A stretch of DNA of 64,000 bases, from positions 1,003,528 through 1,067,527 of the forward strand of contig BCIN01000008.1 of NCBI GenBank assembly GCA_039545335.1, read 5' to 3'. The first letter of the stretch is position 1; each line of letters begins with the position of its first letter. Source of the stretch: Kondoa subrosea (taxonomy: Eukaryota). The notes beneath the pieces were generated by a model. That model had not been told where the DNA came from and made no database searches. It saw only the letters and a program-made list of their open reading frames with translations. Made by a program: the position numbers and the translations under genes. Shown one piece after another: positions 6,446-58,681 of this stretch.

Positions 6446-6635
6446 GGCTGATGTGTTGGTCAAAAGCAGAGGTATAGAAGAGCACAACGGTATTCGCCAA
6501 TCTCAAACGCAAGGTATCATTTGGCTGCTACAGGAAAAGCAGCCCAATCATTACTAATCATTTCATTAGGGAATATTAATGTTATGAGATGACCTTACAT
6601 ACAACATCTTAAAATACAGTATGGCTATTTTACAA

Positions 6636-11769: not shown

Positions 11770-13217
11770 TCAAGCGCCAATACCAGCAGCTTCTCCAAAC
11801 AGAGCTTGACTATGGTGCCGCGGTCGTCAGAGCCGACAGATGTTTGCATCCCTCACACATCGTCTTCTGTATAAGTATATAATCCACCAGCATCGAATGA
11901 TCCTTCAGCGGCAGCTTCGAAAGCGATAGACCGCTCTGGATCTTCATCCGAGTCGATAGAGACAGATGAGGTAGAGTAAGACCGAGCCTTGCTTTTCGAT
12001 TTACTGATGCTGGCCCGTTTCTTTGGCTTGATGATTTCTTCTTGCTCTTCTTCCACATCCTCATCCTCTTCTACTTGAACCTCTTCCTCTTCTTCTTCTT
12101 CAGATATTTCAGCAGCTTTCTTCCGTCGCTTTTTATCATATTTGCCTTCCGCGGCATCTTTGCGACGGAAACACCCTCGAACTAGCTCTGACCAATATTG
12201 AGAGGTCTTGCAGCTTGTACAGGTACCAATAGTAGGTAGAAGGCTTTCAGAAGTGATGTACCGTTCTGCCAAACAATCGAGATGCGAGACTGAAGTACAT
12301 TTAGCCTCGGGACAGAAGGAAAAGGAAAGATGATCCTGCAGCAATCGGATCAGTGATATCCTATTGCTCACCACACAACGCGTACTTCTGTGTCAATTGA
12401 CTTCTTGCAGCATGCACAGATATGGTTCAGATCTTGAACTTTCTGCCATTTAGACCATTGTTCTACAGCCCAGTCTCGATCTTCCGTATCAATCGGATCC
12501 AAGCAGTCCTTCTGCCCATATCGCTTCGGATTCTCTCTTATCAATCTCTTGCCATCTACACCTTCTCTTCTCAAAATGATAGCTACATGATCCAAGTTTG
12601 GCCAAAAATCTCTACTAGCTAATCGTTCATTCGAGATCTTCCTGACTCAACCAGCCCTCTTATATGGCTTGACAGTCAGGGGACCATTTCGCAAAGCTTC
12701 ATCCCAAACTCTTTGCGCTTCGTCCGAATAAATTCTAATCTTTAAACCCAAACCATTCCAAGGATTGCAACTCAACATTCTTTGCAGCACAGCGATCTTG
12801 TATTGGAAATGATTGCCTCCTTTGCCAGGTTGAGCAGTAAACCAAGCTTGACCTTGATCGTTTCTCAAATGTCTAGAAATCTGAGGTTTCTGCCAGGCCC
12901 ATTCAAATTGCAAAGCAGCTAGTTTGGATGGGAAACCATAGACGTTGATCTCCATTTCCCAAGGCCGAGCCCATCGGGTTTGCATGGCTCCGCCTGCTTT
13001 TAATTCACCGTTATGCTGACGGATTCGACGAGGTGGATCAGGTGAAGAACCGATATAGGTGCGATTCGAGAAGACGCCATCTTTCTTACTGTACTCCGTG
13101 GTGAGATTGTGAAAGAGAAGTGGTACCGAGAACTTACGAGCGTAAAAGATAGCAAACATAAAGAGTAGGAAAGACGTGATTCGTCGAAGTAGAGCGAGAA
13201 GAAGTGGTAGGTTTCAT
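11770..13217 (-). CDS. SLX1: Structure-specific endonuclease SLX1 (GIY-YIG plus C-terminal Cys/His zinc domain)
   Basis: VCYLLRS|...[20 protein letters not shown]...[19 protein letters not shown]-terminal CACC...[14 protein letters not shown]...GTCTSC. The last exon and stop (11770 vs 11853) are uncertain. Confidence 0.9.
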
Positions 13218-34981: not shown

Positions 34982-36359
34982 ATGGCCAAACGCAAGTCTG
35001 CTGTACCTACAGTACCTGCACCAGAACAGCCTGCCATTGAATTAGACCCAGAGTGCGTTCCATTCCAATGCAAAGCCAAGATTCTTGCTTGCTTTGTGTG
35101 CTTCGCGGCAATTTGGCTGATTGGCTTGTTCCCGACTACAGAGAAGAAGAGGAGGAAGAGGAAGAAGAGGAACAGCAGGAAGCCGAAGAATACGAATCTG
35201 AGACTTCATCACAATCTGGCACTGAATCTTTGACTTGGATCTCATGGTTCTGCTCTTTGCCTGGACATGAATGTATATCCCCTTCGACGCATATGTTAAT
35301 CTGATCAAGCTCATCTAATGTACTCAACAGACTTTGCGGAAGTAGCAGAAGACTTCATTGAAGATGACTTCAATCTGACTGGCTTGAACGCTCTTGTACC
35401 ATTCTACAAAGAAGCACTGGATATGGTATTGGATGTAGAACCTGAGGAAGAGCAGCTCAAGATTCCGGATGTATCCCTTATCGAAAGCTCTGCCGAACTA
35501 CTCTATGGCTTGATTCACCAACGTTTCATCATCACTCGTCAGGGCTTTCAGCAGATGGTCAGTCTTTCGCTTTATACTTCGCTGTCAGACCTTCCTAATG
35601 TGATGGCAGTCTGAGAAATACGAGAATGCTCATTTCGGCACATGCGCTCGAGTATATTGCAATTCTGTCAAGGTACTGCCATGTGGTCGAACCGATCTAC
35701 CAGGTGTAGATACAGTCAAACTTTTTTGTCCTTCTTGTATCGACATCTACACACCACCTTCAAGTCGATTCAACGGTGTAGACGGAGCTTTCTTTGGAAC
35801 GACTTTCCCTCATCTTTTCTTCCAATCTCACAAAGATCTTTTGCCACAACATCCAATCCTCGATATGAAACTTAGAGAACAACAACCTTCTGCTGTTCGG
35901 GTTGGAAATTCAGAACCTACTACGAATCCTTTACTCAGCAACTCTCTACCGAAAAACATTGACGCTTCTAGAGCTTCTTCACTCGGTCCAGGTATGGAAC
36001 AACAACCTTCTACTACAACTCCTTCTTCCTCTTCTACTGCAACAACAACAAAACGAAGTGGAAACGTTTTCCCAGCTACTACACCTTTAACTTCTAGTGC
36101 GAAATTGTATATTCCAAGAATTTATGGATTCAAAGTTTCTGAAAAAGCTAGAAGTGGACCTAGAATGCAATGGATGCGAATGAGGGAAAGGAATGCTAAA
36201 GAATTGGAAACTGTTGATTCGAAAGGAAGATTTATTGGTAGGGAAGGTACTGTGGATACTACTGATGAAGAAGAAGAGGAAGATGATGAAGATGAAGACG
36301 AGAGTGAGGAAGAGATAATTCAACAGGAACCAAAGTCTGGAAAGAAGTCAAAGGCTTGA
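34982..36359 (+). CDS. CKB1: Casein kinase II regulatory beta subunit
   Basis: [63 protein letters not shown]...[36 protein letters not shown]. Confidence 0.93.
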
Positions 36360-36767: not shown

Positions 36768-39700
36768 ATGGAAATAGATTACAAAAGTCAAATACCTTTA
36801 TTAGGGCAGCTGTTGGAGTCTCTGGAAGCGAAATTGCTGCCTACATCAAGCTCTGATGTAGCACAACTCTGGCTTTCGGATTGTTTGAGAGACAAACAAC
36901 TTTTGCCTGAATTGGTTCTGGCGAGTAAGCCGCTCGTTCATTGGGCCTGGAAAGGCTCTGAAGGTCTGCATTAGCTGCCGAAGGACCTCTGAGAAATCTT
37001 CTTCTTCAAGCTCTATCTGGTCAGAAAGTATCGTTTCATCCTGTTGCCGATGCATTGCTTTCTCGTTTTGCAAGATGGTTCAATACTTCTCTTGCTCTTA
37101 TACGAGACGATCTTTCAACCCAAGATGATGTACATAAGATAGCGATAGCTTTTCCTCCGGCTGTTGCTTTAATTGACAAAATTGTCTATGGAAAAATCAA
37201 ACTACCTACAGCTACGCCAGTACCTGTAAGAGCGGCATATGATGAAGTGTCAAGCTCAGATAGCGAAACATCGGAAGCAGAGAGCGATATAGACTCTTCG
37301 GAAGAGGAAAGGAGGACGAGAAAGGAATTGATGGCTCCTCGGATTCAGGTCCAGGCGAAAATGAGTCAGAAAGAACGCAAAAGAAGAGCTGGGAATGGTC
37401 AAGGAGATACTGCAAATGGAAGTACATCTGGTTCTAATGCGATGAACGAGCTGAAGCGTACATTCGGTTATGGTAAGGTGTCGAACAAGCTTTCAAGTCA
37501 GCAGCTGATTCCCTCTTCAACAGCTAAATTGAATATTCCCACAACACCACTAGCCGCTATACGTCTAGCTGCCGAAATTGATGTTGTCAAGCGGAGCATT
37601 TTGGATGTATGTAAACTAGCTTGGCCGGAATCGGCGCTGATTTGATTGTCAAAAGAACATACTGAACAACGTGATACGTCGTGATGAGGTGATCCAGCAT
37701 CTCATTAAGACCTATTTTCAGCTATCCGTACTTCCTTCTGCTAATGAATCCACTTTGGATGAGCGGAACTCAAAGATACATCCTGGTCACAACGATCAAA
37801 AGAAGGTTTTAGACGTCTCTGAAGCTCAGAAGACCAAAGCTAACGTCCCGTTGGTATCCCAAAATCGCTCAGAGATTGATCCTTATTCTCTTTTCCCCTC
37901 GATTGCACCGTACAAAGCTGCTCAGCTCTTTTTAGAAGACGATCAAGCGAAACTGGGACCATGGCACATCTTCGTTAGCGGAAGAGCTATCTCCGATCTC
38001 AAGAATCTCCGCGATGAAGCTGCTCTGAAAATCGCTGTGAAGAAGATTGGAGACCTCAGTCGCGGTTTCTTCTCAGATGACAACCAGAAAGCTCTTACTG
38101 TCGCCTCTGGTTGCGTTCCTATCTTTGAAGCGAAAGCCAGTGGTGATATGAGAATCGTGTGGTCTGTCGATCTGCGAGAAGAGAGTAGAGAAGATACAAT
38201 TGATGGTCAAAAGCGCTCCGTTCAAGTTGTAAAGCAAATCATTAAGCTCTGGGCTGTTTCTACACACGCGCAAATTGATAATTCGAATTGGCAAGCTTTG
38301 GCCAAGCAATCTTCGACAAAATTACCAGAATATAGACGGAGGTGCAATTTCAGAGCCGAAGGTGGACGCCGGACGGGGGCAAAAGTCAACAATTCGTGAG
38401 CTTCTATCTCCTGCATTATAGCATTGCTGACGTTCAAGAAGTATTCCACCTTCCGAATGGCCCAAATTGACCGGTGAACCCGATCTTCTGCAAAGAAGTG
38501 ATGTTACTACTTCCAGGCTTTCAGATGAAGACCTGCTCAGCTTACACAACATGCTCGCGCTATCTAAATTCATTCCACTTTCCATTCATCTGCTTAAACA
38601 GATTGTTGCTTCAGATGACAGTATCGCACAAGTCTTCGACGTAGCTGCATCGGAAAGGGAGATCATCGATCACGACGGAAGTTTGTTCGTTATTGGGAGG
38701 CAAGTTTTCTTTCGCTCTTTAGCTCCTGATATTATTGCTGAAGGCGCAACCTAGATCGGGCTCTGGCAAAACTACTTGCATAACGTTCAGACTCTTCGGG
38801 ATTGAAAAGGCGTTCGATCGCCTACGCAAGAACGATCCTGATGCTGTTAAAGTTAGACAACTTTTCATAACGCAAAGTCGTAAGTCATATCGAATATTAG
38901 CTATATTTTTGGCTGACTCATTTCAGCTGTTCTGGCTGCTCGTGTGTCGTGCTGAGTTGTGGAGATTACTTACCACTCATCAGGTCTTGCAGGTATTCGG
39001 GAATATTACGACAAACTAGAGAAGGCCTCATCTCTTGCTCTCATGAACAAAGAAGAGTTGAAGAAGCTCTCCTCGACGAAAGAAAAACAAGGGCTGTACG
39101 ATATGGATGACAGCTCCTTCGATTCCGGCTTGCCGAATTCTTGGAGTGACTTGAAGACAAGCACTTTCCCTTATTCCTTTCCTATCCGCAGCTGGTGAGG
39201 CTACTCGAAGCAGACTTTGGAATACGACATGGTATCACTTCATCAGCTGCTCAAAAGCGAGCGATTGCAAAACGCTCAAGTTTGGCTGCCTCAACGCTGA
39301 ATCTATCGAATACCGAAGAAGTGGAGACGGCTGTCGTTGAAGAGAGTGCCGATTGGCAACATCATATCACCTTCGATGTCTTCGAAACACAATGGCAGCA
39401 CTTTGACGCAAGATTGACGGCTCGCCTCACCCCTGCTCTAGTGTTTGCCGAAATTTTGGGCATCATTGAAGGGTCAGAGGCCGCTGCACAGACAACTGAG
39501 GGGTATTTGTCGCGTGAGGCATACCTTGGGCTCTCTATTCGCGGGCATGGACTTCTTTCAGATCATCGAGACCGAATCTATTCACTTTTCGAATTGTACC
39601 GCCAGTGGAAAGCTTCCCGATTTGATTTCATGCAGCGGAACGAACCTTCACTCTTCTACAGCATTTGTCGCGAGCGAAAGCAAGGAAACAAGTCGATTTC

Positions 39701-42700
39701 TTATACGTGGATGAAGCACAAGACTGCCTTATGTCTGATCTTCAAATGCTTCGTCAACTTTGCTCAAATCCAAGGGGTTATTTCTTGGCTGGCGATACGG
39801 CTCAAACTGTTGCTCGAGGATCTTCTTTCAAGTTCGAAGAGCTCAAGGCTTCCTTCTGGAGATTAGAACAAGCCGAACCTCTGGTGCTCAAAGGAGCTCG
39901 GCAAGCAATGCATCCAGCTCAGTATCAGCTATCAATCAATTTCAGATCACATCAAGGAGTAGTTGGCTTGGCCAGCTCGCTAGTTGACACGATCATATAC
40001 TTCTTTCCCAACTCTCTAGATAAACTTGAACGAGAAAAAGGACAGACTGACGGTCCCAAGCCAATCTGGTATGCGCCTAAGGTGGATGATAATTCTGGTA
40101 GACAGTACGTGCGAATTCGTGAGATTTTATCTGAGCTGAGCATATCACACTAGCTTGGAGCACTTCATGCTCAATTCTAGCGGAAGCATCGAATTTGGAG
40201 CTGACTCGGTCATTTTGGTTCGAGATGAACAGTCAGTTTTTCATTGTCCATTATTTTCTGTTTTGAAGTCGCGGAAAAGAGCTAGAGAGAAGTTGAAGCT
40301 ATTGGTTGGCGATGCCGCCCTTATCTTGACCATATATGAGAGCAAAGGTCTAGAATTCGATCACGTGTTGATGTGAGCAGGAGAATAGTATGACCGTGAA
40401 ATCTATGCTAAGCTTGCAGCAGCTATCAATTTTTACAAGATGGCGCTGCTTCTTTTACCGATTGGCGAATCCTTCTTCGATTGCTGGAAGGCGAAGCTGC
40501 TGAAAATGCGCCGCGGTTTGATTCGACTCGGCATGCTATATTGTACGTCGCTTTCTTGATGCTGAGTTCCTGTCTAAGGCAACGCTCTTGCAGATGTCTA
40601 GAACTCAAACAACTCTGTAAGTATGCATTATATTCTGGTTCTAGGCTTGAATAGCTTGTTCACAGATGTTGCCGTCACTCGAAGTCGCAAAAACCTCTGG
40701 CTGTGGGAACCTGCCTATGATACACATCCATTACAGACTCTTTGGCTTGATCAAGACCTGGTCCGTATCTGCACTTCGGAAAAGGAACTCCCTTCCTTCA
40801 AAGGTGTGTCGCAGGCGTTGTTCTGTTCTGTGCTGAAACGACACCTAGGGAACTCTACACCAGAGCAATGGCTCGCTTTAGGGCAAAACCTTTTCAATCA
40901 AGGGTGAGTTTCAACCTCCAGCGCTTGTTTCATTGCTAAACTTCTTACTGGCAGAACTTGGGCTGCTGTCATCATCTGCTTTAGCCGTGCAGAACAGGAA
41001 GGCTATATCAAGATCACACTAGCTTATCAAGCACGCCATCAAGCTAGAATATTGTTCAAGAGCCAAACAAGCACTCCGGTTAGAGTGACATCGTCTTTCA
41101 TGAATGCTGGGTACGAGCTTTTTGCGCTGCCTCGTTTGTCTCGCTGATCGATTCGTCGCAGTGATCTCTTCGTTGAGGCTGCACAGGCGATAGGAGCAGA
41201 GGATCAGAGACAAAGGAAAAGTCTGTGGGAGGCAGCTGCCCCTTGCTTTGATTCTGCTGGTCCTTCCGCTCTGACCAAAGCAGCCTATGCTTGGGAGCAA
41301 GCTGGCAACTTCGAAAATGCTGCATCCCGATATCTTAGAGATCGGAACGTCGATAATGCTGTTAGGCTCTTAAATCAGAGGCGCAGCGAAATCTCTGAAG
41401 ACCTCATCGAAAACATTCAATTCCAAGGTTCGATGATCTATGCAAACGAGCGCGCGTACATGAAACTCTTGTCCATACACCGAACTCCGCAAGCTGTTGT
41501 CGATTGGCTCAGGGAATTCGATTTCAATGCTGAATTGGTTCCCGTGCTGGAAGCGACTGGCTCGTTCGCCGAAGCTGCTGCAATTGCAGAAGAACAATCG
41601 AACTATACTAGAGCAGCCAGACTTTACAGCAAAGTGGATTCTGATGCTTCCCGTTTGTCTGGACTGATTTGTCATGTCAAATCTGCATGGGCCCGACTTC
41701 CAATTCCCGCCCTAGACATTCGCACGGAACTCGACTTTCCGATAGTCATACAAGCGCTGAAGGGTGTTGAAGAGCTGCAAACGAAGCTCACCACAGTGCC
41801 TCCGGCTGTTCTGATCCAAGTATGTACTTCTGCATGTGAGCTTACTAATCACACGCTGACACAAGACCATAGATCGACCTTCTACACGGCTTGCTGCACA
41901 AAGATGCGGACACTGTCAGAGCAATTTTACCTCGCCTCTCTAATGCGCAACTCCCTTTAGCTCAATTTCATACTCTGGACTTCCTTTCTCGAAGCGAATT
42001 TCGTCTTCTTGATCAATCAAATGACGCTTATCTCATCAACATCCGTACATTGAAACACTACATTCGCGATGTCCGTTTTTTCACGGCCAGCTTCTACCTC
42101 GACTCTTTGTCGGAATCTGCGCAGATGGCTCTTGGTATTACTCTGGACTCAGCTGGCGATGCGCATCTTGTCACAGTTGCTACGTACTCGCCATTGTACA
42201 GTGCAGCAAAAGATTTGATGTTGCTGAATCAAGCGCATCAGGCTGTTGATTCTGATCAAATAGTGGTGAATTGGGACTTTCTGAGGTCATCAGCTTTTCT
42301 TTTCTTTATCAAGCGAATCAATACAAGGACATTGGCTCTCTATTCAGCTATGCGAAGATCATCTCTTGTCACGTCGCTGCCCTCTACTGCTCAAGATATC
42401 GGCGAAAGCATGGATGTGGTTGTGGAGATGTACCACTTCTTGTGTGATGTACGTGCAATGTACAAACACAGCTCGGCAAGCTCGAAGAGCAAAAGCTATG
42501 ATAGGCTGTACACGCTGCCAAGGTGAGTAATGTTCTTGCGATAGCTTCCCATAGCACTTATAAAATAAGGTTCAGCGAATGGCTGCTCGGAGCACAGCAC
42601 ACACTATTTCCGTCGAAAATTGATGTAGCAGGCGTGCGGGAACTTGATCCAGAGTATGTCAAGAATTGGAAGAAGTTGGCTAGGTGAGCTGGCGATTAGA

Positions 42701-44765
42701 GAGAGTTATATTCACGCTGATTTGGATGGCAGGATTTTCCAAGGACTTGCCTCCGATAGGCTTTACGACCTTGGCACAGACTTTCGACGACGCGATCTTC
42801 TCTCAACCTGGCTCACTTTCAGCATGTTATCTTGTGAATTGTCTATTGGCATACAGATGGAGTCGTTCTCCTCATACGCGCCGAAGTTACCGATTGCGGC
42901 TACACTATCCGCTCCTCGTAGTCTAAGGCGTGGTCCACCTCAACAGCAAAGGAATGTGCTTCAAGACCATATCTTTTACATACAAAACGCCTCTCGCGGC
43001 GTACTGACTGCGAAAGTGATTTCAGAGAGTCTTGAATTTGCGCTGTATGTAAAGTACAAGGTGCTAGGATTGCGCTAAAAGAATCTCAGGCATCTTGCTC
43101 GTCCCAATTACGGTGAACTTTTCAGGGTTGATGGCAACATGCTCATGCACTACGTCGAGAGGTCGGTTCGATGCTTCGAGTAATGCTCACCGACACTGAT
43201 ACTGCTGATACTGCTACCTGCTACAGCATTGCTCCGTTTATTATTAGCGGAGTTCGATCCAGCTTGGCCGCTTTCCAGAAACTTCCGGGAAAAGGCTTTA
43301 CAGATCTTCTGCTACCTTTGTCTGCCATGCGGAGTCTGGTTATAAAACATCTTTACTCGCACAATCAGGCCAACTTTGGGCACATGCATGGTCCTTTTCG
43401 GCTGCTCGAAAATATAGCAAAGTCTTTGCAAGATTCAGATGCTATCTGGGCCCATCAGCCTCAAGATAATCTCTTGTTACTTCAACGAATGTGAGTGAGC
43501 AGCTCTGAATACCAATCTGTACGCTGATAGTCTGCTTCAGATCCGTGCTGACGGCCGTCAGTAAGTCAAAATATACCAATGCACTAGTGCCTGGTCTGAT
43601 GAAACCGTAGGTGCATATAATGTACAATTCTTTCGCAGACAGGCATCAATTATGTGGAATTTGGTCAATAAGCAGATTTCGCCGAATCGCCAATACAAAC
43701 CCACCTGGCCAGATGTTGAAGAAGATCTCACCATCATTGCAGCATCTTTGGCAGGTTCGGTTGCTCGATTTGTTCAGATAAGAATCGGTTCAGCGGCAAA
43801 TCCAGAAGCCGACTTACCTAGCACCGAAGTCATCAGAGTCGATAGTATTGGACAGCTACCTGGTGTACTATCTCCTGGCTTTGCTGCATTACTTTCTACT
43901 TCGCCTTCTTCTTCTGTTCTTGACAAAATCTCCCAATCAGACGCAACAGCGACTCGAACCATTCGTTCGACAAACAGATACGAGGCCATACAACCAGTAG
44001 CTGATGAAAGAAGCCAGAAAATGGAAGAAGACGACGAGGCGTTGCAGGAGATTGCATTGGTTGTCACACCTGCAATGGAAGAAGCAGCTAAGCGTCTTTC
44101 GAAATGGTACAAGAGATACCTGCAGAAGCAAGCGAAACAGGCTGGAATGGACGAAAATACTAGACTCACTCAAAGTATTCTTGCCAAGATGACATCTGAA
44201 ACCCAAAAAGCCTCATTGCCCGTCAGATACCGGTTCATACTTCTTGGTCCAGTGATCCATCTGATTGCTGCTCTACAAAAGCTTGAAGAAGAACACGGTC
44301 AGCGCAAGCGTAAGAACAATCTTCTAATGAGAACAGCAATCGGCGACGATATGACTTTGATGCAAATCAGAACTAAGGCTTTGAGGTCAGCACCAGCCTT
44401 ATGCTGCGGCTTATATCTCTGACAATGTCTGCAACAGTGCTCAGCGCAAGGAGCTGAACCGTCTCAAGCCAATACTCAAATGTGAGGTACTGGCTGAAGC
44501 ATTCGACATGGAGCAAATCAAAAGCTATACTTGTTCGACCTTTCGCTTGTTCGATAGCTTCGATCACGAATCCTTCTCTGGTCCTTCTACTCGCAAGGAT
44601 CTACTTCAGAATCTCCAGCTCGCTCATCGTGGTATTGTGGATGTTGCGCTGCCTCGAATCGCAAAGCCCAAACCTCCTAAGCCTTCCAAACCAGCACTCA
44701 ACACAAGATCAGAACTTGATGAAGATTTGTATGATGATTATTCGGACTCAGAAGAGGAGCTTTAG
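36768..44765 (+). CDS. TRANK1/LBA1-like large SF1 (UvrD-like) helicase with TPR region and RelE/ParE-like domain; two apparent frameshifts
   Basis: Walker A GR|SGSGKTT, RQLFITQS, Walker B LYVDEAQD, LAGDTAQTVARGSSFKF, NFRSHQG, FGADSVILVRD, ILTIYESKGLEFDHV, YVAVTRSRKNLWLWE, then TPR-like helices. More than 15 introns. Confidence 0.85.
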
Positions 44766-45019: not shown

Positions 45020-46442
45020 ATGGATATTACAAAGACACACTCTTCTCACATGCCCAGCAGTACGTCCATGCACTGGTCTTGCTCTGTAAAGCAATAGTGA
45101 CGTTTGTATCTTTACAGTGACCTCTCATTTGCCTACGCCTAACCATGGCCTTGAGACTGCCACTGAATCAGGCCACAACGTTCTCTGGGTCGTCTTCGCT
45201 GCCATGTTGCTCTCGTGAGTCCCGCAATGCAAAGTCCGAATCGGTAAGAAGTCTAATCTTACAATGTCTCTGCGTGCCCAGAACTGCTGTATTCTTTGGT
45301 CTCTCATTCCGCAGAGCCAAGCGAGACAGACTCTTCTTCTACCTCACTGGCTTGGTCACCATGTTTGCGGCCATTTCATACTACTCCAGTAAGCTTTCAA
45401 ACCCGATTTACAAGATCGATAGCTTATCTAGAATTCGTTCAGTGGCTATTGGTTTCGGCACTACCCTCATCCCTGCTCGCGGGCCCAAACATGTCGGTGT
45501 TCACAACTTCCGCGAAGTCTTCTCTGCCAGGTCGGTCACAGCCGCTCCATTTTGTTGTATGCTCATTCTCATTTCCCTTGGCGTTTAGGTACTTCGACTG
45601 GATGTATGTCATGAGCCGTCTCCGGTAGCAGCTCCGTATGCTCACCTCTTTTCTCTCTGAACGCCATAGGGTCACCACTCCTCTATTGTTGCTCGATTTG
45701 GGTTTCTTCGCTGGCTTGGCTCCAATTGACCTGATCTTGGTCGTCATCGCTGATGTCCTCATGGTCGTCACCGGTTACTTCGCTGGCATTACTCACGGTC
45801 TAGCCCACCGCATGGGCTTCTATGCCATGTCTTGCGTCTTCATGCTCGTTGTCGTCAGTATTTGGATATCTTTCATTTGTCAACCAGTCATCTAAATTTT
45901 TTGAGACAGTTCGGTATCCTTCTGGTCAACGGTAGCTCAGCTGCCAAGGCCCGCGGTGACAAGGTCAAGAACGCCTACTTCATCCTTATGATGATGAGTC
46001 AGTATCCGTTTTTCTTAGTTGAGATCGTCTTACTCATTGTTCTCGCTCAGCTATCGTACTCTGGACCGCTTATCCAATTGTATGGATGTTCGGAGAAGGG
46101 CTCAACGTCATTCGTCAGTCTTTCCAGTTTCAAATAGGGCAAAGCTCATTTCGCAATGTAGACTCTGACACCGAAATCTACCTCTACACCGTTCTCGATG
46201 TTCTTGCCAAGCCTGTGAGTTTAATCAATGTTCTCCCATTTGGGCTCACCGACTGATCTTGCTCTAGGTATTCGGTGCTCTTCTTCTCTCCTTCCACGGC
46301 AAGATTGAAGAGATGGAAACAAGCCTACCTGCTTGGGTAAGCCGACTACTTGGTATTGCGACACACTGCTAACATCCATTCTTAGTTCGTCGAACCTTCT
46401 GCTGGAGGTGAATCTTACAGCATCTTGCCTCAACACGAATAA
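45020..46442 (+). CDS. Microbial (type I) rhodopsin, DTD motif, retinal-binding Lys present
   Basis: Spliced helix C RYFDWMVTTPLLLLDL; helix D ADVLMVVTG; helix F LWTAYPIVWMFGEG; helix G YTVLDVLAKP|VFGALLL. Confidence 0.9.
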
Positions 46443-46820
46443 GCGATAACAGCGCCAATCGACTAATCAGCTCGCTTTGGATCTGGAAGCAGAGCATTAT
46501 GAAACAGTTCAAGTGAACGACAGTAATGAAGGATGGAATTGAGTTATTGTATTATACACCTACGATTGCAAAACATGCTCTCTTTTAGTATCGTTACTAC
46601 CTTCTCGTGCTACTGCCCTGCTGCCCTGCTTTGGACTTTCTTGCGCTGACTTTGAGGGTTTGTCCAAACAACGGCTCAATTGTTCAAATTCGCCAGCTTG
46701 AGTCTGCAGCTCGGTAAGGCCTAGCATCAACTACTGCAGCGAAGTATTTCTGAGGCAAAATTACAGCCCAAATCTGCATGATTGCACCCAGCTCACTTGC
46801 ACCAAATTGAAAAAGCAGCA

Positions 46821-49800
46821 ATGGCTAGGCCTAGCTCTCCCGAAGCAGCTAGGCGCCAGTCTTTGCGTGCTAGCGGCTCCTCACTCTCTCCTGCCGTCCC
46901 TTCCTCAAGCAGAGAAGCTCAAATAGCAGACAAGCTGCTGAACGAGCAAGACATCCATGTTCGCCTTACTCTGGCTGTGGAGATCAGGGATTCTGTAGAT
47001 TCCTTTCGCGAGACCGACTACAAGTCCTTTGTCGACACTGTTTTGCCTGCAATCATGTCAATTTTCAGAGCTGGTCCAGTATCTCTTTTCGCTGCAACAC
47101 CAGAACACAAGTTTCGAGTGACTTTGATGGAAGCTATACATCGTCTAGGTCAATCTGAACCACTCAAATCGCATGCTCTGGAACTCATGAATCTTCTACT
47201 CTACTTGCTGCGAAACGACAACGAAGATATTGCTTCGACCGCTATGAAGATCATCATTGATTTGCATCGTTCGTTTAAAGAAGTACTCTCTGGAACAGTG
47301 GAAGAATTCTTTACTATCGTCAAGGATTATTATCGTGGCATGGAAGCTGTAGTAACGAATCTTTTTCCAGCAAGCGATATTAAGAATGGTGAAGAACCTG
47401 TTGAAGCACCCACTACTCCAGCTTTGACTGCTTCCGGATCAATGCAACCCGCAACCAATAACACTCTTTTACCAATGGCCACTCAATCTTTCAAAGTCGT
47501 CAGCGAATGTCCAATAGCTATCGTCTTTCTCTTTCAGACCTATCGAGATGTGGTTCCGACTGAAACTAAGATCTTTGTTCCTATCATTTTCAACTTCTTG
47601 CAAATCACTCCGGCAGCCCAATTCCAAGCTCATCAAGAAGCGGAAGCAAGAGGCGAGATTTATACTGGCGTTGCACCTGCTCTGGAAGTCAAGCGAAGTC
47701 AATTTAACGAACTCCTCAACGCTCAAGTTAAGACCATGTCCTTCGTCGCTTATGTTCTTCGAGTCGCTTTCACCGCTTTGAACAATTATAGAACCGTCTT
47801 ACCAAGCATCATTGTTCGCTTAATGAAAGATATGCCAACTGAAGCCGTAGCAACAAGGAAAGAACTCATCGTCGCTCATCGCCATATCTTAGCAACTGAT
47901 TTTCGAGCTCACTTCATCCCCTATATCGACGTTCTTCTCAATGATCGGGTTTTAATTGGTACTGGTACGACTTCAAACGAAACTTTACGTCAAACTGGTT
48001 ACTCTACAATGGCGGATATGATCCATCATGTTCGAGCGGATCTCAACATCGAACAAATTTCAAGAGTTATTCATACTTTCTCTTGCCATCTTCATGACAA
48101 CACCCTCAATTTCGCTATTCAAACTATGGGATCCAAACTTCTTCTGAATCTCATCGGTTCTATCATTGTGAAGGACAGGGAAGTGGCAATTCAACTCTTG
48201 AATCGGATATTGGAAGTCTTTATCTTGAAAATTGAAAGCTTGGCAGCTTGCAAAGATGATTGGGATAAATGGGGCAGACCAAAAAGATCGTACAAGAGGA
48301 GAAGTGCAGAAGAGGTTGGAGGTGGTGGAGAAGAAGGAGGTGATCAAGAAGGAGAAGAAGAGAAGGAGTTTGACGAGATTGATTTGGAAAGAAGAAAACC
48401 TATTGGAGCTTTGGTTTGCATGTCAGCGGAACATGGTGCGGAAGCTTTGAAAGGTTCGTCTTATTGCTTTTATTTTCCAAGTAGGCCGACTTGCTGATCT
48501 ACATTGTAGATGCACGGACTCTGCTGCGAAATCTCATTCATGCCCTCAAGGCTGTTCTCTCGGCCTTGAAACATGTACACGGCGCTCCTCCAGACGCAAA
48601 ACAGATGGGCCGACTCTTCATTTCCGGTATGAAATGCATGTCCATGTTTGATCATCTCAAAGGACTCGGCGACAAAGGAAGAGTCGAATTGAAAGAAGTC
48701 ATGGAACCTTTCGCCGAACTCTTTACCCAAACCGATCTCCTTATCTTTCAAGAAATCTTCGAGAATCGCATGCAGCTCTTTCTTGATGAAGTTTGTGCAA
48801 ACGGTGAATTACTTCTTATCGCTCAATTCCTACTTTCGCACAAAGAATACTCGCATGCTTTTGTCAATATTCTGCTCCGATTCTTGGTCAGTCTTCTCCC
48901 AACGATTGGCAATCGATCAGAACATACTGCTTTGATTCTCGTTCGTCTCTACAAAATGAGTTTCATGGCAATCACAATCTTCCCTGAAGCAAACGAAAGC
49001 ACTCTTCTTCCGCATCTCACCCACATAATCATGCAGTCACTCAAACTAGCAAGTCAAGCAGAGAATCCAGTACACTACTACAATCTTCTTCGGTCTCTCT
49101 TCCGCAGTATTGGTGGTGGTCGCTTTGAAACCCTTTATCGCGAAGTATTGCCTTTGCTGCAAGTCATACTGGAACAGCTCAATGCCCTACTCAATGCAGC
49201 CGACCGATCGAAACGAGACTGCTTTGTCGAACTTTGTCTGACAGTACCAGTCCGACTCAGTGTCCTATTACCAAACCTCTCGTACTTGATGAAACCTCTT
49301 GTCTTGGCTCTTGAGTCAGGTAACGAACTCGTCACGCAAGGTTTACGCACTTTGGAACTCTGCGTGGACAATCTCACTCAAGAGTTCCTCAATCCACTCA
49401 TGGCACCGGTCATTAACGACGTGATGACTGCTCTTTGGAAGCTCCTCAAGCCACTTCCAGCGAATCAGCATTTTTCTCATCAGACTTTGCGAATCCTAGG
49501 TAAAATCGGTGGTAGAAATCGGCACATCCTTGGGCCGCTCAAACTTAAGTGGCAAGCAGTCGGGGAACAAGCTATGATCCCTATCTACTTTGATCAATCA
49601 GCACAAGGTTTGCCTATGGGTCCTGTAGCGGATCTGGCTGCTAGAACTCTCAAAAGAGGGGACATCTATTATCGAGGTCAAGCTTTTGCCTTCTTTAAGA
49701 GTGCAGCAACGTGCTTTATCAAAGAGGTATGCTCCCTTGGACATGAGCCGAGTCGTTGCTTATATGGTCTCTAGTCACCAAGCACTGGAGAATCGGAAGA

Positions 49801-52800
49801 GACCTTTCAAACCATCCTCCTAGGTCTTCTGGAATGCACGAGATTAGAAGAATTACAAGAAGAGGCTACAACTTATGTCAAAGAGCTGGTTAATTTCATC
49901 TTCCAATCAGAGCTGCGCAAGGAATTGGTCGAAATGGGAGTCGGCAAACAAACGTTACCTTTGGTGTCTGCTCTTCTGGATGCCTTGACGGAAAACCTAG
50001 CAAGTGCGACCGGAAACGATCTCACTCAGGCTTTGGACTTCACCAAAGTATTGATTAATGCTGTTATTGAAGATGCCAACATTTCATCAGATCTGACGCA
50101 TGCTGTTCTACGTCAATTCACAACCAGATTGGCATCAGTATGCTACGAGCATGCCTGGGCCCGCAAAAGTGGAGGTGCAGCTGGACTCCGCTTGTTGGCT
50201 ACAAATATATCGCTTGAGTTCTCAAGTCGCTGGTGCGCAAGTCATGAACTTGAGGTCATGCGAGCTCTTCTCTATATGCTCAAAGATGCACCAGCTGATC
50301 CGCCTGCAAATGTTCAAGACGCATCAGAGACTCTGCTTCATGTGATGCGAAATAGCTACATCGTTGGACCACCAGATCCGAGTGAAGCAGGCTTAGCTCG
50401 ACACAAATACATGATCACTCTTTTGATTGTGGAATTGGCCTCACAAACGGCTATCGTACGAGAAACGACCAAGAAAGCAATAGAAATTATAGCGACAGCG
50501 CTGAATCAACCAATCGCTGAACTTCTTCACGATTCGCGCGATCGTCTCCTCGGGCCCATCTTCCAAAAACCGCTTCGAGCTCTAGCTTTTTCAATGCAAA
50601 TTGGTAATATCGATGCAATCACTTACTGCATTTCGCTCAGTCCACCATTGCTCGACTTCGAAGCCAAGTCAAATGACCAAGCGAACAGCGACAATCCAGC
50701 TGCGGCGTCAAATGCTGCTACTATGGAAACTTCGCTTTCTCGTGTTTTAGTTGAAGCTTTAGGTATTGCAGATGCCGATGACCAAGCATTGGCTGGGCGC
50801 AACAACCAGCAACGAAATGCAAATCTCCTGGTGAAACTTCGTGTGGTCTGCGTCAAAATGCTTTCAGCAGCTATGGCAACTGCAGAATTCAACTTGCCCA
50901 GACAAACGCAGACTCGTATGCGCATTCTGGCGGTATATTTCAAGCTGCTCTATTCCCGTGCTCCTGAAGTGGTCGATGCTTCCTACGATGCTCTGCATCA
51001 AGTCACAAATGGATCATCGAAACTGCCGAAGGAGTTACTCCAATCTGGTCTGCGTCCAGTATTGATGAATCTAGCAGATCACCGGTGAGCCTTTTGCTTT
51101 CATTTGCGATCAGCCTGTACTTATCATCGATCTCAGCAAACTTACTGTACCCAGTTTGGAAGGTTTGGCGAAGCTGTTAGGTCTCTTGACAAGCTACTTT
51201 CGCGTTGAAATTGGTCACAAACTCCTGGATCATTTTAGAGCTATCTCGAATGATCTTTCAGCGCTGACTCACGCTGCTCTCAATCCACAAAACGAGAACA
51301 GTGAGCTCGCGATTTTGGCTGGAGTGGTCAATATCTTCCGCCTTTTACCTCACCCTGCTTCTGCCATCTTCCTGGAGCAACTGTGCACTCTGGTCACTGA
51401 TGTCGAAACATCGCTCAAAAAAGCAGGGCCAACTCAATTTACGACGCCGCTGGCCCTTTACCTTGACCGATATCCCGAAGCAACAGTTGAATTCTTCTTT
51501 GTCAGAATTGTTGACGACTCGGCATACGCTCGCACATTTTATGCTGTACTGGCATCCAAAGAAGCACCAAACCTCAGAGATTATCTAGTAGCAAACGTGA
51601 CCACCATCTTTCCGCCTCTTTTCGGAGAAGATCCAAGACCTCCTCCGACGGCTGATGAATCTCCAAGACGCCCGTGGAGAGCAGCTCTACACGGTGCTGA
51701 ACTTCTGCTGTGCCTCTTGCGCGATAGCCCACCTTGGGTAGCAGAAGAAAAGAATAAGACTTTGTTGGGCGCTCTGTGTCAGCGATGGATATCAAGTATA
51801 CGATTGAGTCGTCTGCAGTCTGAAGGTCAAGACCACCTCGATCAAGTGGCCGAAGACGCAATTCTCTTGGATGTGTTCTTGGCTGTTCTCAAGCAGAAAC
51901 CCGACATTGACCTTCTCTTTCACATGGCTAGCATTTATACCGACAGAAGTTGCTGTGATCACATCAAGTTGTCTCGCTTCTACTTCGAAGATATCTGCGC
52001 AAGTCACGATGTGCCAATGAAACGTCGTATCCTTGAACGCTGGGTCGAACTGATCGAAGTAAGCAGCATCTCAGCTGATCACAAAGCTGCTGCTCTCCAG
52101 CATTTCATCAACCCGATGCTGGATCTCTCTTTCTCTCGCGGTCAAGCGGAAATAGCTCTTCTCGACAGCGTCTATATCGATCGCTTACACTCTAAATTGT
52201 GGCAGCCAGCATTAAGTCCCGAGTGGCGAAGCGCTTGGCTGAACTCGGAATGCCTGAAGATAGAACTATTACGCATGACTACACTGATTGTGTCCAACCG
52301 ACCCAAGTTGATTGCTGATCGCCGTAAAGATGTCATCAAATTTGGATGGCTCAACAACAGCGATCACGATACAACCGTCTCGCAAGCTGCTTTTGCTCTG
52401 ATTGCGGCATTCCTCACGCGCTACGAATCACCTGCGAAATTCGTTATTCATGTCTATTGCAATTTGCTGAAGGCTCATACAACGGAGGCTAGATCACTTG
52501 TCAAAGACGCACTTGATGAGCTTGCAACAGCACTTCCTATTCGTGGATCTTATTCCGCTGACTTGAATCCCCCCACCTGGGTCAAAACAACGCGTCAAGT
52601 CCTGATGGAAGACGGTCATAACAACGTATCTCAGCTGACACATATCTACTCTTTCATCGTCAGGCACCCCGATCTCTTCTTTCCGCGTAGGGACCTCTTC
52701 ATACCACACATCACCGGCAGTATGCCAAAACTGGTACTCTCTAATAGTGCATCTCACGAGACGCGAAATCTGGCAGCCGATCTATACGCTACTCTGTTAT

Positions 52801-55800
52801 CCTGGGAAGGTCAAAGGTCCGTATTGCAGAAGGAGGAAGACAGCAAGATGGAAACAGAGAACCCGGATGAAGCCAGAAGACGAACGCGAGCTGATCGATC
52901 AGGTTCGGCTGCAGCTTCCAGCACTGTCTCGTCTTCACAGACATATAGCATACCTTTGCCAATGCGGGAAAATCTGTTGACTTTCTTGATCAAAGCCGTC
53001 ATCTCTTCTAGCGATTATACTATGCCAAGAGATCCAGCAAACCGAGAAGTGGCAGTCAAAGACTACAATCAGCGAAAACAGTTTGTGGATCGCAGTATGG
53101 CTTTATTGAAGCAATTCCTAGCGCCTGAAGTTTGGTCAGACATCAATATCAAGCTTCCACCTTTCCAAATGCCTTTGATTCGCAGTGAGCTGAACGAGCT
53201 GACCCTTCCTGCGTTCATCAGCGCACTCGAAATCCTCAAAATGGTGGTTTCCTTCAAATCAGATGAATGGGTTCTGGCCAATATCATACCTTTGCAAAAG
53301 CTCTTGGAGAAAACGGTCCTGGCAAAGGAAAGCGAAGCTCACCGATGCATTGCACCATTGCTTGAGCGAATGTTTTCGGTCTTTCCAAATAGCCAGCAGG
53401 CAGCATCTGAAGGTCAAGAAGAAGCAGAGGGAACTTCAGCTTTGCCGTCTCAGTTGTCAAACGAGGGGAATGCTCTCTTTTCGTGGGCTAATTCAACAAT
53501 AGAAGAAGGTCTGCGAGGCGGTGGGACTGGCCTACAAGGATCTATTCTTTTGCTGCAGTCTATGACCGGGTCGCATCCAAATCGATTGGAACCTTTCTTC
53601 GTTCCACTTGGCAGAGTTCTTACCAGACTATTGAAAGAGCATCTCGGCGGGACTACAACTGAAGCATCTTCGCCAGAAACATGCAGAGTACTGCTGGAAG
53701 ATATTATTCGATTACTGCGTTTGCGGGTCGCTGATCTCGGAGAACAGCGCCGTTGGTATTTAAGCTCATTGATACAGATCGTCGAGAAATCTCCTTCCAT
53801 ACGCCTCTGCCGAACAGTTCTGGAAGTTGTCAGACATTGGATCTTGGTGGATCGAACTTTGGCACATCCTATGCCAAGAGAAAAGGCTACCATTCTCAGC
53901 AAGATGATGTCATTTGAACGCAGAGAAGATCAAACGCTCTATCAAGATTTCCTCACTTTGATCTTCGACATTTATAGTGATCCGACATTTGCTCGAAGCG
54001 AATTAACAGTGCGACTTGAACAAGCTTTCTTGCTAGGCTGCCGTGATCGCGATCCGGTTGTTCGTGGTCGCTTTCTTGAACTGTTTGACCGCAGCATTTC
54101 AAGTTCTCTGTATGCTCGCTTGCATTACATTGTCGGAGTTCAGTCTTGGGAAGCATTAGGCGAAACAATTTGGGTTCATCAGGCTCTAGACCTGCTACTT
54201 GGAGCAGCGGACCAAGAGCGTGCCCTTTTCACACCGTCCCAGCGCTTCAGTGCCAATCCTGCTTCAACTTCAGCTTCATCTTTCCTAGAAGAATTGGCTC
54301 GTGGCAAAAGTCGGGCTCTTCTAAATGCCACTCGCAAGCTGGTCTATGCCGATGCGAACACAACGCAGATTATTTGGACTGCCGCCTTCAAGTCTGCTTG
54401 GAGCTGTCTCAATCGCAAAGAACAACATGACATTAATCGCTACATGATCGTATTGCTGTCCAAGGAATATCATCTCGGTGCTGTTGATCGCAGACCTAAT
54501 AACATACAAATGCTATTGGCGGGCTTGCTCGCTTGCACACCTTCACCTTCGGTACCGCCACATCTAGTGCGTTATCTTGGAAGAACCTTCAATGCCTGGC
54601 ATATATCAGCCGAGTTGTTGCAAGAAGCCGTAGCCGAATATCGCGAAGAACAGCCTCATATTCAAGAGAGTACTTTGGATGCTTTAGCTGAATTGTACTC
54701 CGATCTGAGCGAAGATGATTTGTTTTATGGCCTATGGCGCCGTCGCTGTAAGTTCATATCCTGTAATGCTCTGGCGTAAGCTGATTCGAGTAGCATTCTA
54801 TCCTGAAACCAATATTGCCATCTCTTTCGAGCAAGCTGGCATGTGGGCTCAAGCGCAACAAATGTACGAAGCCGCACAAATTAAAGCCAGAACAGGGGTC
54901 ATGCCATTCACTGAATCCGAGTATGCTGTTTGGGAAGACCATTGGGTTACTTGTGCCATGAAGTTGCAACAGGTGAGTTCATCCTCTGGCTTCACTCTTG
55001 CGTTACTGAATTGAAACCGAAGTGGGACATTCTGACGGAACTTGCGAGACATGAAGGCAATTCTGATCTGATGCTCGAGTGCAGCTGGCGGCTTGGTGAC
55101 TGGTTCGCCGATCGCGACAAAGTTGAAGAAACAATCGGACATCTTGCTTCTGTTGCCACCCCTCGACGACGGGTCTTTGAGGCTTACCTCGCTCTTGTCA
55201 AGTCTAATCAGACAGAAGATCGTAAACCATTCATCGAGGCTTGTAATGGCGGTATTGAACTTGCGTTGCGAAAATGGTTCTATTTACCGGAAGTTGTCAG
55301 CGCTGCTCATGTTCCTCTCTTCCAGCTCTTTCAGCAATTTGTGGAATTGCAAGAAGCTGGTTCTATCTTCACCAGCTTGGCTGCTACCAATGCGGGCAAT
55401 TTAGATCAACGATCTGTCGAGCTCAAAAGTATCTTAATCACATGGCGAGAGCGCCTTCCAAATGCCTGGGACGACATCAACATCTGGAGTGACCTGGTCG
55501 CTTGGAGACAGCATGTCTTTGACGCTATCAACAAGTGTTATCTCCCTCTTTTACCTCACGTCCAGCAAGCGCCCAATGGAGCTCCAAACGCCAATTCTCT
55601 GGCTTACAGAGGTTATCACGAAACAGCTTGGATCATCAATCGCTTCGCACATGTAGCTAGGCAGCATCAGCTCAGTGAAGTCTGCATTGGTTCTCTGACA
55701 AAGATCTATACCTTGCCAAACATTGAGATTCAAGAAGCCTTCTTGAAGCTCCGAGAGCAAGCTAAATGTCACTACCAGAACCCTGGAGAACTCACTGCAG

Positions 55801-58681
55801 GTCTAGAAGTCATTAACAATACCAATCTGGCCTACTTTGGCCCTTCACAAAAAGCCGAATTCTACACGCTTAAGGGAATGTTCTTGGCTCGGTTAGGTCT
55901 AAACGAAGAAGCGAATCAAGTTTTCAACTCGGCTGTTTCATTGGACATGGGCTTTGGCAAAGCTTGGGCACATTGGGGTGAATTTCATGATCGCCAATTT
56001 ACAGCCAATCCGCAAGATCTATCTCTTGCTGCAAACGCAGTCGGTTGCTATCTGCATGCTGCAAGTATCTACAAGAGTGCCAAAGTGCGCAAGTTGCTCG
56101 TTCGAATTCTATGGCTTCTCTCTCTTGACGATTCGAATGGCACAATTGCAAAGGCGTTTAATACTTTCAAAGGCGAACCGCCTACCTGGTACTGGGTCAC
56201 CTTCATCCCTCAATTGCTGCTCTCCTTATCTCATCGCGAAGCGCGCTTCGCTAAAGCGATCTTGCAAAAGATTGCGCGGACGTTCCCGCAAGTGAGTTCT
56301 CGCATTCGTTCATATGATTAGTTTGGCCTGAGCTCTCGATTATAGGCGCTTTTCTTCCAGCTTCGTACCAACAAGCAAGAACTCGACAGCGTAAAGGCTC
56401 AGTTCGAAGCCCGGCGGTTAGCTGCAAGTGGCGGGCAAGCTAACAAGGGGAATGGTTCATTGCCCACTACCGATTCATCATCCAGTAAAGATCAGGATGT
56501 AGAGATGGGAACGCAATCATACCCATCAAGCACGGCCAACACTCAGATGCCCGTTCAAGTCATGGGTCCCAATGGACAAATGATAACCATGCCAGCTCCC
56601 AGCAATCAAGCTCAGCCTCAGAACCAGCATAGGCAACCTTGGGAATATGTTGAAGAGATTGGCTCTTTGCTCAAAACCGCTTTCCCGTTATTGGCCCTTA
56701 CTTTGGAAACTATAGCTGATCAGATCTACCAACGCTTCAAGCCTTCAGCTGAAGAAGACGTTTACCGCATGATCTGTGCAATGATAAATGATGCCCTCCA
56801 GGTTCGTCTCGCTGAGCCGTGTCTCAGTTTCAGTTCTCACTTTGTGTCAGCAACACATTGTCCGTAGTCCGGATCACAAGGATAGCGGGGCTTTATCGCC
56901 AGCTACAATTCTCAATGTTCAGAAGTTCGCAGATGGTTTGCCGCATGGCTTGAAGGTTTGCCTTTTGCTATAGCTGAATTCCGCCGGGATTTACAAAACG
57001 AGAATAGGTTCCGTTCACCGAAGACTTCGTCAACAACGTGCCAACCGTAAGACAATATGTACAGCGCCTTCAGCGTTGGCGTAACAAATATGAGCATTTG
57101 ATCGACCGCCGAGTGAAAAAGAACCCGCTCGAATCGACCAGTCATTGGCTAGTCGAATTCCAATATCACAAATTCGATGACATTGAAGTACCGGGGCAAT
57201 ATCTAAGGGTGCGAAGCATTTCGATACCTTATCGTATCCGCTCACGTTCTCATGCTCTCTTCAGAACGAGGATACCGCTCAAAACTTTGTCCGGGTTTCA
57301 CATTTCCATTCTCGATTCGATTATGTACGACAAGGAGCCGGACCTTTCCGTCGCTTGACTATCGTTGGGCACGACGGTAGCATACACCCGTTCGCGATAC
57401 AATTCCCTGCGAACAGGGCGAGTCGAAGAGAGGAAAGAATCGTCCAGTTCTTCAGGCTGCTCAATGGGTATGTAGTGTATTGGCGCTTATTCATAAAGCT
57501 AATTGTTCTTCAGGCCGCTCGCGAAGCACAAAGAATCTCGCAAGCGTAATCTTCAATTTGATCTTCCAGTCGCAATACCCTTTTCACCTACTTTACGGTT
57601 GGTTGAGAATGAAGCCTCTGTGACGACTTTGCAAGATGTGTACGAAACCTACTGCCGTCAACGTGGTATGGACAAAGATGATCCGATCATGGGCTTTGTA
57701 GAAAAGCTGCGCGAGCTTTCTGCAGCACGTGATGGTCTGGTATGTCGCACATCATTCGTAAAGGCAGAAGTCTAAAGCTCTTTATAGGAAGGCAACACAT
57801 TGGATGCGGCAAAATTGGAAGTCTTCCAAGAAATCGTGTCCAAGATCTTCCCAGATGATATTCTCAAGAATGTGAGCTACCTTGATAAGTACCATCTGTG
57901 TAATACTCACTCTTGGTCAGTTCATGGCGCGCTCAATGTCAACGCCTGGTGATCTGTGGCACATGCGAAAGCAAATGACCTCACAATTCGCCTCCTTCAT
58001 CTTCATGACCTACATTTTCTCTATTGGGATGCGACATCCTAGCCGGATTTCGTTTTCCCGGTCCACTGGATCCTTGTATACGACAGACATGCTGCCTAGT
58101 AAGTCTGCCATTGAAGCTTGTCGAATGCTGCTAACATCTTTGCCAGCCTTTGTTGCCGGAAAAGCAGAATTCGGCCATACAGAAAGCGTACCATTCCGCT
58201 TTACGCCAAACTTACAACGATTCTTCGGTGCTATTGGAACAGAAGGCGTTTTGACTAGTGCACTGCTAGCCATCGCTCGAGCTTTGACTGAGATAGAGGT
58301 ATGTTTCGGCTGGCTCTGATAACTCGTATACTAAAGATAACTGGCAGAACGACTTGGAGCATCGGTCAAGCATCTTCGTCCGAGAAGAGATGATCATCTG
58401 TCATCAACTGCTCAAGAAGTCTACTTCAGACAGCTCATTACGAGAAAACACTGTGCATAACGTCAATGCACTAGTACAACGAGCCAATCTTCTAGCATGC
58501 AAGTTGGAACGCGAAAAGGTTAGTTGAACTCATATGTATGCTTATAAGCGTTCTGATCCACGTCTTCTAGACCCCTGTCGGAGGAGTGCCAGCTACTCAA
58601 ACCATCACCGAATTGCTCTCTTCCTCTACGAACCCACAACGTCTCGCTTTGCTTGATCCGCTTCTTTTGCCCTGGCTGTAG
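46821..58681 (+). CDS. TRA1: Transcription-associated protein 1 (TRRAP; SAGA/NuA4 PIKK pseudokinase)
   Basis: [46 protein letters not shown] region ([25 protein letters not shown]), PI3K-like region ([21 protein letters not shown]), FATC ending [12 protein letters not shown]. Confidence 0.96.

Follow-up and report, generated by a model that had tools for sequence, protein, structure and literature searches.

RelE toxins are thought of as prokaryotic proteins. In type III CRISPR systems, the CARF-RelE protein Cami1 is activated by cyclic oligoadenylate. TRANK1 (LBA1) is a UvrD-type helicase with TPR, and the animal protein presumably bears, before its helicase, a segment similar to the one described below. 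RelE domains fused to SF-I helicases (the Z5902 family) were reportedly described by Anantharaman and Aravind in 2003; that paper may also note one from a fungus, in which case our finding would be less new. The RelE-UvrD fusion as such is already known from ARMADA II, which the accessible parts of two preprints (bioRxiv 2025.09.15.676423 and 2025.09.22.677730) present as a tested anti-phage system: ArmD (Z5902/ECs_5264) of ARMADA type II carries an N-terminal RelE-like domain on a UvrD helicase, as does the fungal family reported here, and a RelE-helicase beside Tiamat type I-K is a fusion of the same kind. In their accessible text, the papers that define the fold (PMC3482391 and PMC3710099) have no RelE-UvrD-TPR protein among their fusions. 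The superfamily survey of Gerdes (2025) gives only scattered eukaryotic toxin-antitoxin fusions, with no mention of helicase, UvrD, TPR, or TRANK1 in the main text consulted and none of helicase or UvrD in the searched portion of its supplements. No eukaryotic RelE-helicase was found in a literature search covering sources other than subscription journals and bioRxiv supplements (such as ARMADA Table S2). Searches for TRANK1 paired with RelE as whole words found nothing, and those on TRANK1, UvrD, and a ribonuclease domain returned only unrelated work.

The locus analyzed here lies in 64,000 nucleotides of intron-rich fungal DNA from Kondoa subrosea (contig BCIN01000008.1), referred to as the window. 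A sequence-only reading had proposed a RelE/ParE-like toxin domain at 37955..38280, fused upstream of an SF1 helicase-TPR protein. The features of the gene are as follows.

36768..44765, + strand: whole gene, a hand-built predicted model with 23 exons and 22 introns
36768..37958, + strand: N-terminal region of ~364 aa, containing an acidic and low-complexity stretch
37959..38282, + strand: core of the RelE/ParE (BECR) fold, residues 21-128 of P0001, from structure matches; pLDDT 86.7
38283..38354, + strand: C-terminal helices of the domain, with conserved W131, Y145, R148, C149, and R152
38518..38616, + strand: conserved linker of helix, short strand (~38569-38580), and second helix, with docking onto the RelE domain predicted by modeling
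38695..38773, + strand: Walker A, split by a GC-AG intron at 38700-38754
39145..39155 (near 39149), + strand: frame break 1, in exon 7; not explicable by an intron, and called as a frameshift in spliced alignment
39626..39636 (near 39631), + strand: frame break 2, in exon 7; not explicable by an intron, and called as a frameshift in spliced alignment
39707-39724, + strand: helicase motif II (hand model)
39788-39808, + strand: helicase motif III (hand model)
39938-39952, + strand: helicase motif IV (hand model)
40341-40358, + strand: helicase motif V (hand model)
40668-40688, + strand: helicase motif VI (hand model)
40849..41819, + strand: TPR-like helical repeats, with weak, subthreshold Pfam TPR matches (E 0.017 and 0.026)
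41873..44765, + strand: C-terminal region, aligning weakly to fungal homologues up to ~residue 2,290

In the hand model, the introns are 43-55 nt long (21 GT-AG and one GC-AG), and the 2,306 codons end in a single terminal stop when read with X at the two frame breaks. For 37886-40994, the model was reproduced, intron donors included, by independent spliced alignment against a homologue. Pfam gave no family match for the N-terminal region and no credible one for the C-terminal region. The peptide with the RelE-like pattern is in frame at 37956-38280 within one exon (37656-38395), and the limits proposed for it agree with those of the structure matches (37959-38282). The segment spans residues 364-469 of the gene product, and Walker A stands at residue 596, followed by motifs II to VI in order. 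The segment had been said to lie directly before Walker A; it does not, because 127 residues separate the two in the gene model, with an intron (38396-38438) also intervening. CK2 beta lies directly upstream (35050-36359) and Tra1 further downstream (45900-58500); these flanking genes are housekeeping genes and were counted against a defence reading.

An SF1 helicase with TPR-like repeats in a single gene, close to what was first proposed, is supported: UvrD-type motifs and, less firmly, TPR-like repeats follow the RelE-like domain. The window gene matches the Pfam UvrD helicase family (E 8.7e-5), and motifs I to VI with a UvrD-like fold place it in the UvrD/Rep-type SF1 class, in a copy that is frame-broken as assembled. 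The nearest solved helicases are the DNA helicases UvrD, PcrA, and Rep. Among 180 long homologues, Walker A is kept in 177, motif II in 174, and motif VI in 166. Support for the repeats in homologues consists of subthreshold TPR_1 matches and of helical repeats in a homologue model.

An AlphaFold2 model of the RelE-like domain, built from an 82-row alignment, had a mean pLDDT of 86.7. When it was searched against 48,161 chains, rows 1-24 were all RelE/ParE-superfamily toxins or Cami1 (Z 10.3-6.5), and the first unrelated chains appeared at Z 6.0. The best match was VIA (Z 10.3, rmsd 3.1 over 97 residues), with YafQ at Z 9.8 (rmsd 2.4 over 86 residues), YoeB at Z 9.6, and Cami1, likewise a sensor-fused RelE domain but without a helicase, at Z 9.4 (rmsd 3.0 over 92 residues). 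Foldseek ranked RelE1 first (E 3.9e-3), with nothing at E<=0.001. RNase-type chains (Z 9.6-10.3) lead both fold searches; ParE gyrase inhibitors follow closely at Z 9.1-9.5 (ParE-type chains, Z 8.3-9.5), which counts against an RNase reading. The model has the N-terminal helices over an antiparallel meander sheet, with strand 1 at the edge, that define the BECR fold. As first proposed, the domain is real and, by its modeled fold, a member of the RelE/ParE superfamily. A segment search of 1.84 billion representatives matched 202 clusters at E<=1e-3, and these matches, together with the superfamily chains in fold rows 1-24, argue that the segment is not a chance resemblance.

Direct profile searches with the domain gave no match in Pfam, NCBIfam, or PADLOC, and none in the PDB searched by sequence; hence, the homologues are annotated only as UvrD-domain proteins. 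A second Atlas search returned generic bacterial UvrD clusters only, and a word-index search for longer proteins yielded none among 750 candidates. In the Atlas feature search, the domain matched (score, 0.86) a cluster 13% of whose members have ParE_toxin. The best feature match (0.92) was a 150-aa eukaryotic cluster whose commonest phylum is Streptophyta, a lead that plants too carry the domain. In common with the ribosope-dependent mRNA interferases RelE, YoeB, YafQ, and HigB (fold matches at Z 9.6-10.3), the window domain has basic residues and a His where the catalytic sites align, as well as basic residues on helices 1 and 2. Unlike them, it is embedded in a 2,300-aa eukaryotic protein, lacks a Pfam match, and has a longer strand 3-4 hairpin and extra C-terminal helices. 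The arrangement also departs from a type II toxin-antitoxin system: there is no separate, adjacent antitoxin gene, only a predicted helix-strand element in cis.

The domain is widespread in fungi. Of the 202 clusters, 150 were listed, most of them with proteins of 1,500-2,400 aa, and among 20 looked up for taxon, the named matches came from Agaricomycetes, Leucosporidium, and Jimgerdemannia. A search with the helicase alone returned, in its best 120 of 1,219 matches, 109 new proteins, 108 of which carry the RelE-like domain (>=25 bits), including proteins from Glomeromycota and a chytrid; the lone homologue without it is N-terminally cut and begins 120 residues before Walker A. The RelE-like domain is a constant, intron-containing component of these fungal helicases, which form a widespread family. 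Multiple copies are found among the matches listed, with at least four entries from Ambispora leptoticha and near-adjacent locus tags in at least three species, and three metagenome contigs bear two gene copies each. Viral matches were generic helicases only, without the RelE-like domain, and no animal sequences were among the matches listed. Two repeat-rich matches (P0023 and P0081) were spurious and were dropped. Three proteins of ~4,000 aa, P0161 and P0270 (Schizophyllum commune) and P0162 (Dinochytrium), have two RelE-helicase units in tandem and may be fused gene calls or true duplications. The sole GTDB match of a pattern scan, L007, was rejected as a bacterial homologue. Its record (CBDIIG010000002.1, 440 kb), filed in a Sediminibacterium MAG, has a GC content of 27% and yields open frames only if TAA/TAG are translated as Gln; the contig is ciliate-type DNA within a bacterial genome bin. 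At 5269-12945 it encodes a 2,558-aa ciliate-type homologue of the helicase in which the RelE domain is not detectable, and this was counted against our preferred reading.

To place the conserved residues on the RelE catalytic site, we used a sequence alignment to E. coli RelE, which is weak, and a joint alignment for YafQ, rather than residue-level superposition. Conservation was counted in the main fungal set of 228 rows, whose taxa are only partly verified.

38088..38090, + strand: K64, basic, before strand 2; kept in 188 of 223 rows and K in all four deep rows
38127-38129, + strand: E77, aligned with RelE K52; kept in 185 of 223
38133-38135, + strand: K79, aligned with RelE K54; kept in 181 of 223
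38151-38153, + strand: R85, aligned with RelE R61; kept in 208 of 222
38265..38267, + strand: H123, at the general-acid position, aligned with RelE R81 and YafQ H87; kept in 162 of 193

According to the accessible text of PMC5027501 and PMC4652777, K52 or K54 is the base and R81 the acid in RelE, and YoeB H83 and YafQ H87 occupy the acid position. By this alignment, which is of low probability, the domain has basic residues on strands 2 and 3 and a general acid after the last strand, as an RNase of the RelE type would. The hhalign probability for RelE was 1-5%, and in hmmsearch, the shuffles scoring as well as the family profile, per 1,000, numbered 26 and 6 for RelE, 0 and 6 for YoeB, and 122 and 149 for YafQ. 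The profile thus beats shuffles only modestly against single toxins, and since the alignments to toxins are weak, the residue register is likely rather than proven.

Conservation of the Lys, Arg, and His residues, which had been named as a check, holds for K79, R85, and H123 in the main fungal set and reaches across deep branches. Four deep rows were compared (two Endogonales proteins, one chytrid, and the divergent locus L088): among 34 family-conserved columns scorable in them, 9 were identical, and the 6 polar ones were K64, E77, K79, R85, Q113, and H123. E77, K79, R85, and H123 are common to basidiomycetes, Endogonales, a chytrid, and one divergent locus. With Glomeromycota counted, the exact E-K-R-H set is found in 137 of 225 complete rows, and Arg is present at all four sites in 6. 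Many further polar residues are conserved in basidiomycetes too, which was counted against an RNase reading. Glomeromycota drop K79 (kept in 4/32), R85 (8/32), and H123 (0/31) yet retain the fold residues W22, G56, D91, and Q113 (32/32 each), so the three are dispensable for the fold. Loci L066, L072, L075, and L076 also lack the catalytic-position set. In a subgroup comprising P0065, P0101, P0128, and their kin (two named Ceratobasidium), Arg replaces E77 and H123; with His changed to Arg as in RelE, this subgroup appears closer to the chemistry of E. coli RelE. Judged from the alignments, the pattern is that of an ancestral site retained in some lineages and dropped in others.

The linker between the domain and the helicase was examined in a homologue, P0034, whose RelE domain was modeled as a complex with its residues 175-790. 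The score was 0.65, against 0.00 for the best of three controls; runs agreed in >=91% of contacts, and the partner pLDDT was >=77. Among microbial pairs, 51 of 78 solved ones and 2 of 108 mismatched ones attained the mark used for such scores; the corresponding figures for eukaryotes were 39 of 65 and 2 of 126. Mapped to the window, the predicted interface consists of a conserved helix, a short strand pairing with strand 1 of the RelE domain, and a second helix; the linker helix contacts the C-terminal helix of the domain. In the parts of the literature consulted, the neutralizing motif of relBE-type antitoxins is a helix followed by a strand (PMC5416850), and RelB works by displacing the RelE C-terminal helix (PMC3507626). 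The linker is predicted to dock on the domain in the manner of a RelB-type antitoxin. The four catalytic-position residues are absent from the confidently named interface, so the contact may be plain domain packing. The two parts belong to a single chain, and the score may also reflect likeness to solved toxin-antitoxin pairs.

To find bacterial relatives, plasmids were searched by tblastn with a fungal homologue, which returned 127 records with cyanobacterial proteins on top. The closest relatives found, Crinalium WP_015205634.1, Euhalothece WP_146297469.1, and Methylosinus WP_099832079.1, are RelE-UvrD-TPR/ankyrin proteins annotated merely as UvrD or AAA and without a full-length PADLOC model; they differ from the fungal proteins in having ~960-1,100 aa and in beginning at the RelE domain. 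The cyanobacterial relatives, found by helicase alone, bear weak N-terminal matches to YoeB (E 0.023) or HigB-like (E 0.012) profiles, a possible, indirect sequence link between the fungal domain and known toxins, and the Crinalium protein also has a TPR match. The fungal domain profile scored 13 and 22 bits on the N-termini of the cyanobacterial proteins, above all 1,000 shuffles, and gave no score on ArmD, UvrD, or HelD. Both cyanobacterial proteins have E, R, R, and H at the four sites. The fungal alignment is colinear with the Crinalium protein from the RelE domain to the TPR (hhalign probability 100, E 2e-42, 637 columns).

The helicase gave the same picture. The three RelE-bearing plasmid proteins scored 169, 149, and 84 bits, compared to 52 for ArmD and 25-33 for Rep, UvrD, and HelD. 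In a helicase tree of 19 rows, the 12 eukaryotic rows grouped at 100/99 and were joined to the three RelE-bearing plasmid proteins at 100/99; ArmD formed a long branch outside this group, from which UvrD, Rep, and HelD were also excluded. ArmD aligns with the fungal family over the helicase (E 8.9e-15) but differs from it in lacking TPR and in belonging to a four-gene operon; the window gene has no ArmA/B/C operon around it and so falls outside ARMADA II. The likeness to prokaryotic anti-phage fusions raised in the sequence-only reading proves, by the colinear alignment and the tree, to be homology. On the best explanation, the eukaryotic family has single-gene bacterial RelE-UvrD-TPR/ankyrin proteins either as its ancestors or as its sister group.

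As for the surroundings of these genes, the Crinalium gene lies two genes away from Menshen nsnA/nsnB, and the Euhalothece gene adjoins a NERD-UvrD gene; this defence-gene context comes from two neighbourhoods rather than a survey. Sampling of 401 genomes of one bacterial phylum gave 21 matches. At all 12 bacterial loci examined, the N-terminus outscored each of 500 shuffles; the scores were low (6-10 bits) at 11 loci and reached 30 bits at the other, which has E, R, R, and H. Searches made by terms other than their accessions found no functional study of these bacterial proteins in the literature. In Shigella and Escherichia plasmids, ~100 records hold an ankyrin/UvrD protein akin to those of the bacterial sister family, with a match that does not extend over the RelE part.

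The RelE fold, the fixed coupling to a helicase, the conservation at RelE catalytic positions, and the bacterial sister group are computational results, and from them we infer a function for the family. Our preferred reading, to which we give an even chance, is a self-restrained, helicase-gated RNase of bacterial defence ancestry, likely acting in defence through translation shut-off or RNA destruction. The domain would be a metal-independent endoribonuclease in which the His serves as general acid and Lys/Arg hold the phosphate. The linker helix and strand would keep it quiet in cis, as RelB-type antitoxins do RelE; the helicase or TPR part would bind a trigger ligand, and ATP turnover with ligand binding would free or position the RNase domain to cut RNA, most likely ribosome-bound mRNA or invading RNA. 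The purpose would probably be defence against viruses or parasitic nucleic acids during infection. An inherited RNA-cutting defence machine is suggested by the cutting-site residues kept across many fungi and related bacterial proteins. The reading is favored by the fold, the 108/109 coupling, the conserved RelE-site residues, bacterial relatives near Menshen, the linker docking score, the several and neighbouring copies per genome, and the interferon induction of TRANK1 described in the accessible text of PMC8278099; it is weakened by loss of the site in Glomeromycota and four loci, the ciliate homologue without the domain, and the frame-broken window copy.

The sequence-only reading, of a sensor (TPR), helicase, and ribonuclease in one protein that may act in antiviral defence or regulated cell death, is supported in part, in its fold, conserved residues, domain makeup, and likeness to bacterial fusions, while the functional roles it names are putative.

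The same fold and residue evidence would suit an active RNase-helicase co-opted for RNA silencing or RNA quality control, which would remove stalled or aberrant transcripts or supply an RdRP and would itself play no part in defence or cell death. A domain packed closely against the remainder of the protein, as the model predicts, fits a helicase-fed nuclease, and the neighbours are housekeeping genes; however, multiple copies, long branches, and repeated site loss fit conflict genes better than housekeeping, and the bacterial relatives occur on plasmids and near defence genes. We consider this alternative unlikely. Whole clades that keep the domain without K79, R85, and H123 could instead point to a module that binds RNA or ribosomes without catalysis and serves only to guide or control the helicase, in line with the absence of toxin matches to the window domain in Pfam, NCBIfam, and PADLOC, and a domain packed in a 250-kDa protein may fail to reach the ribosomal A site. 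Nonetheless, both bacteria and basidiomycetes retain the same residues, among them a His where the general acid would sit, which binding alone does not demand, and an inert module is rather improbable. A ParE-like inhibitor of a DNA-handling enzyme, suggested by the ParE chains, the Atlas ParE_toxin cluster, and a helicase whose nearest solved relatives work on DNA, is very improbable, as RNase-type chains lead both fold searches and the bacterial relatives match YoeB and HigB-like profiles, not ParE.

In the present case, fungal helicases of a widespread family hold a RelE domain as a fixed part, and a bacterial sister group, encoded near defence genes in the neighbourhoods examined, can be traced. 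The finding supplies a concrete catalytic hypothesis (four residues and one restraining linker) for proteins annotated only as UvrD-domain proteins. It would also lengthen the list of bacterial defence modules put to use in eukaryotic immunity and offer a candidate antiviral effector in fungi. Kinship to animal TRANK1 is tentatively suggested by one fungal homologue (P0220) labeled TPR and ankyrin repeat-containing protein 1 in the database; no ankyrin repeats were seen in the window protein. If it holds, the catalytic hypothesis reaches a human gene described as interferon-induced and of unclear function in the available text of PMC8278099. A bolder reading, which we regard as conceivable though doubtful, is that eukaryotes inherited a bacterial one-gene toxin-antitoxin-sensor machine composed of a RelE mRNA interferase, an in-cis antitoxin motif, a UvrD helicase gate, and a TPR sensor. 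It would survive as the TRANK1 family, with the fungal members and human TRANK1 acting as regulated RNases that shut off translation in innate immunity.

The two frame breaks in the helicase exon had been missed in the sequence-only reading. Neither is explained by an intron: even with introns of 38-90 nt allowed, spliced alignment preferred frameshifts. The window copy is frame-broken as assembled, through either an assembly error or recent decay. A second copy lies in the same genome on contig C4 (~410000-419300, minus strand; L002 and L003). It has other intron positions and is far more intron-rich, with 24 introns over the RelE and helicase region and micro-exons among them; in spliced alignment, it shows no frameshift or stop over that region, and it keeps E-K-R-H. 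Separately from the function of the family, we weighed recent pseudogenization of the window copy against mis-assembly of an intact gene. The two breaks lie <0.5 kb apart, the paralogue has none over the matching region and could cover a loss, and the frame switches in the adjacent Tra1 gene all sit where an intron fits in the printed sequence. Against this, the 2,306 codons lack a premature stop, the 22 introns are well formed, and all helicase motifs and the four RelE-site residues are intact. Because two breaks are set against otherwise intact coding features, a pseudogene is possible but is the less probable explanation. Elsewhere in the window, Utp12 and Atg11 lie near its start.
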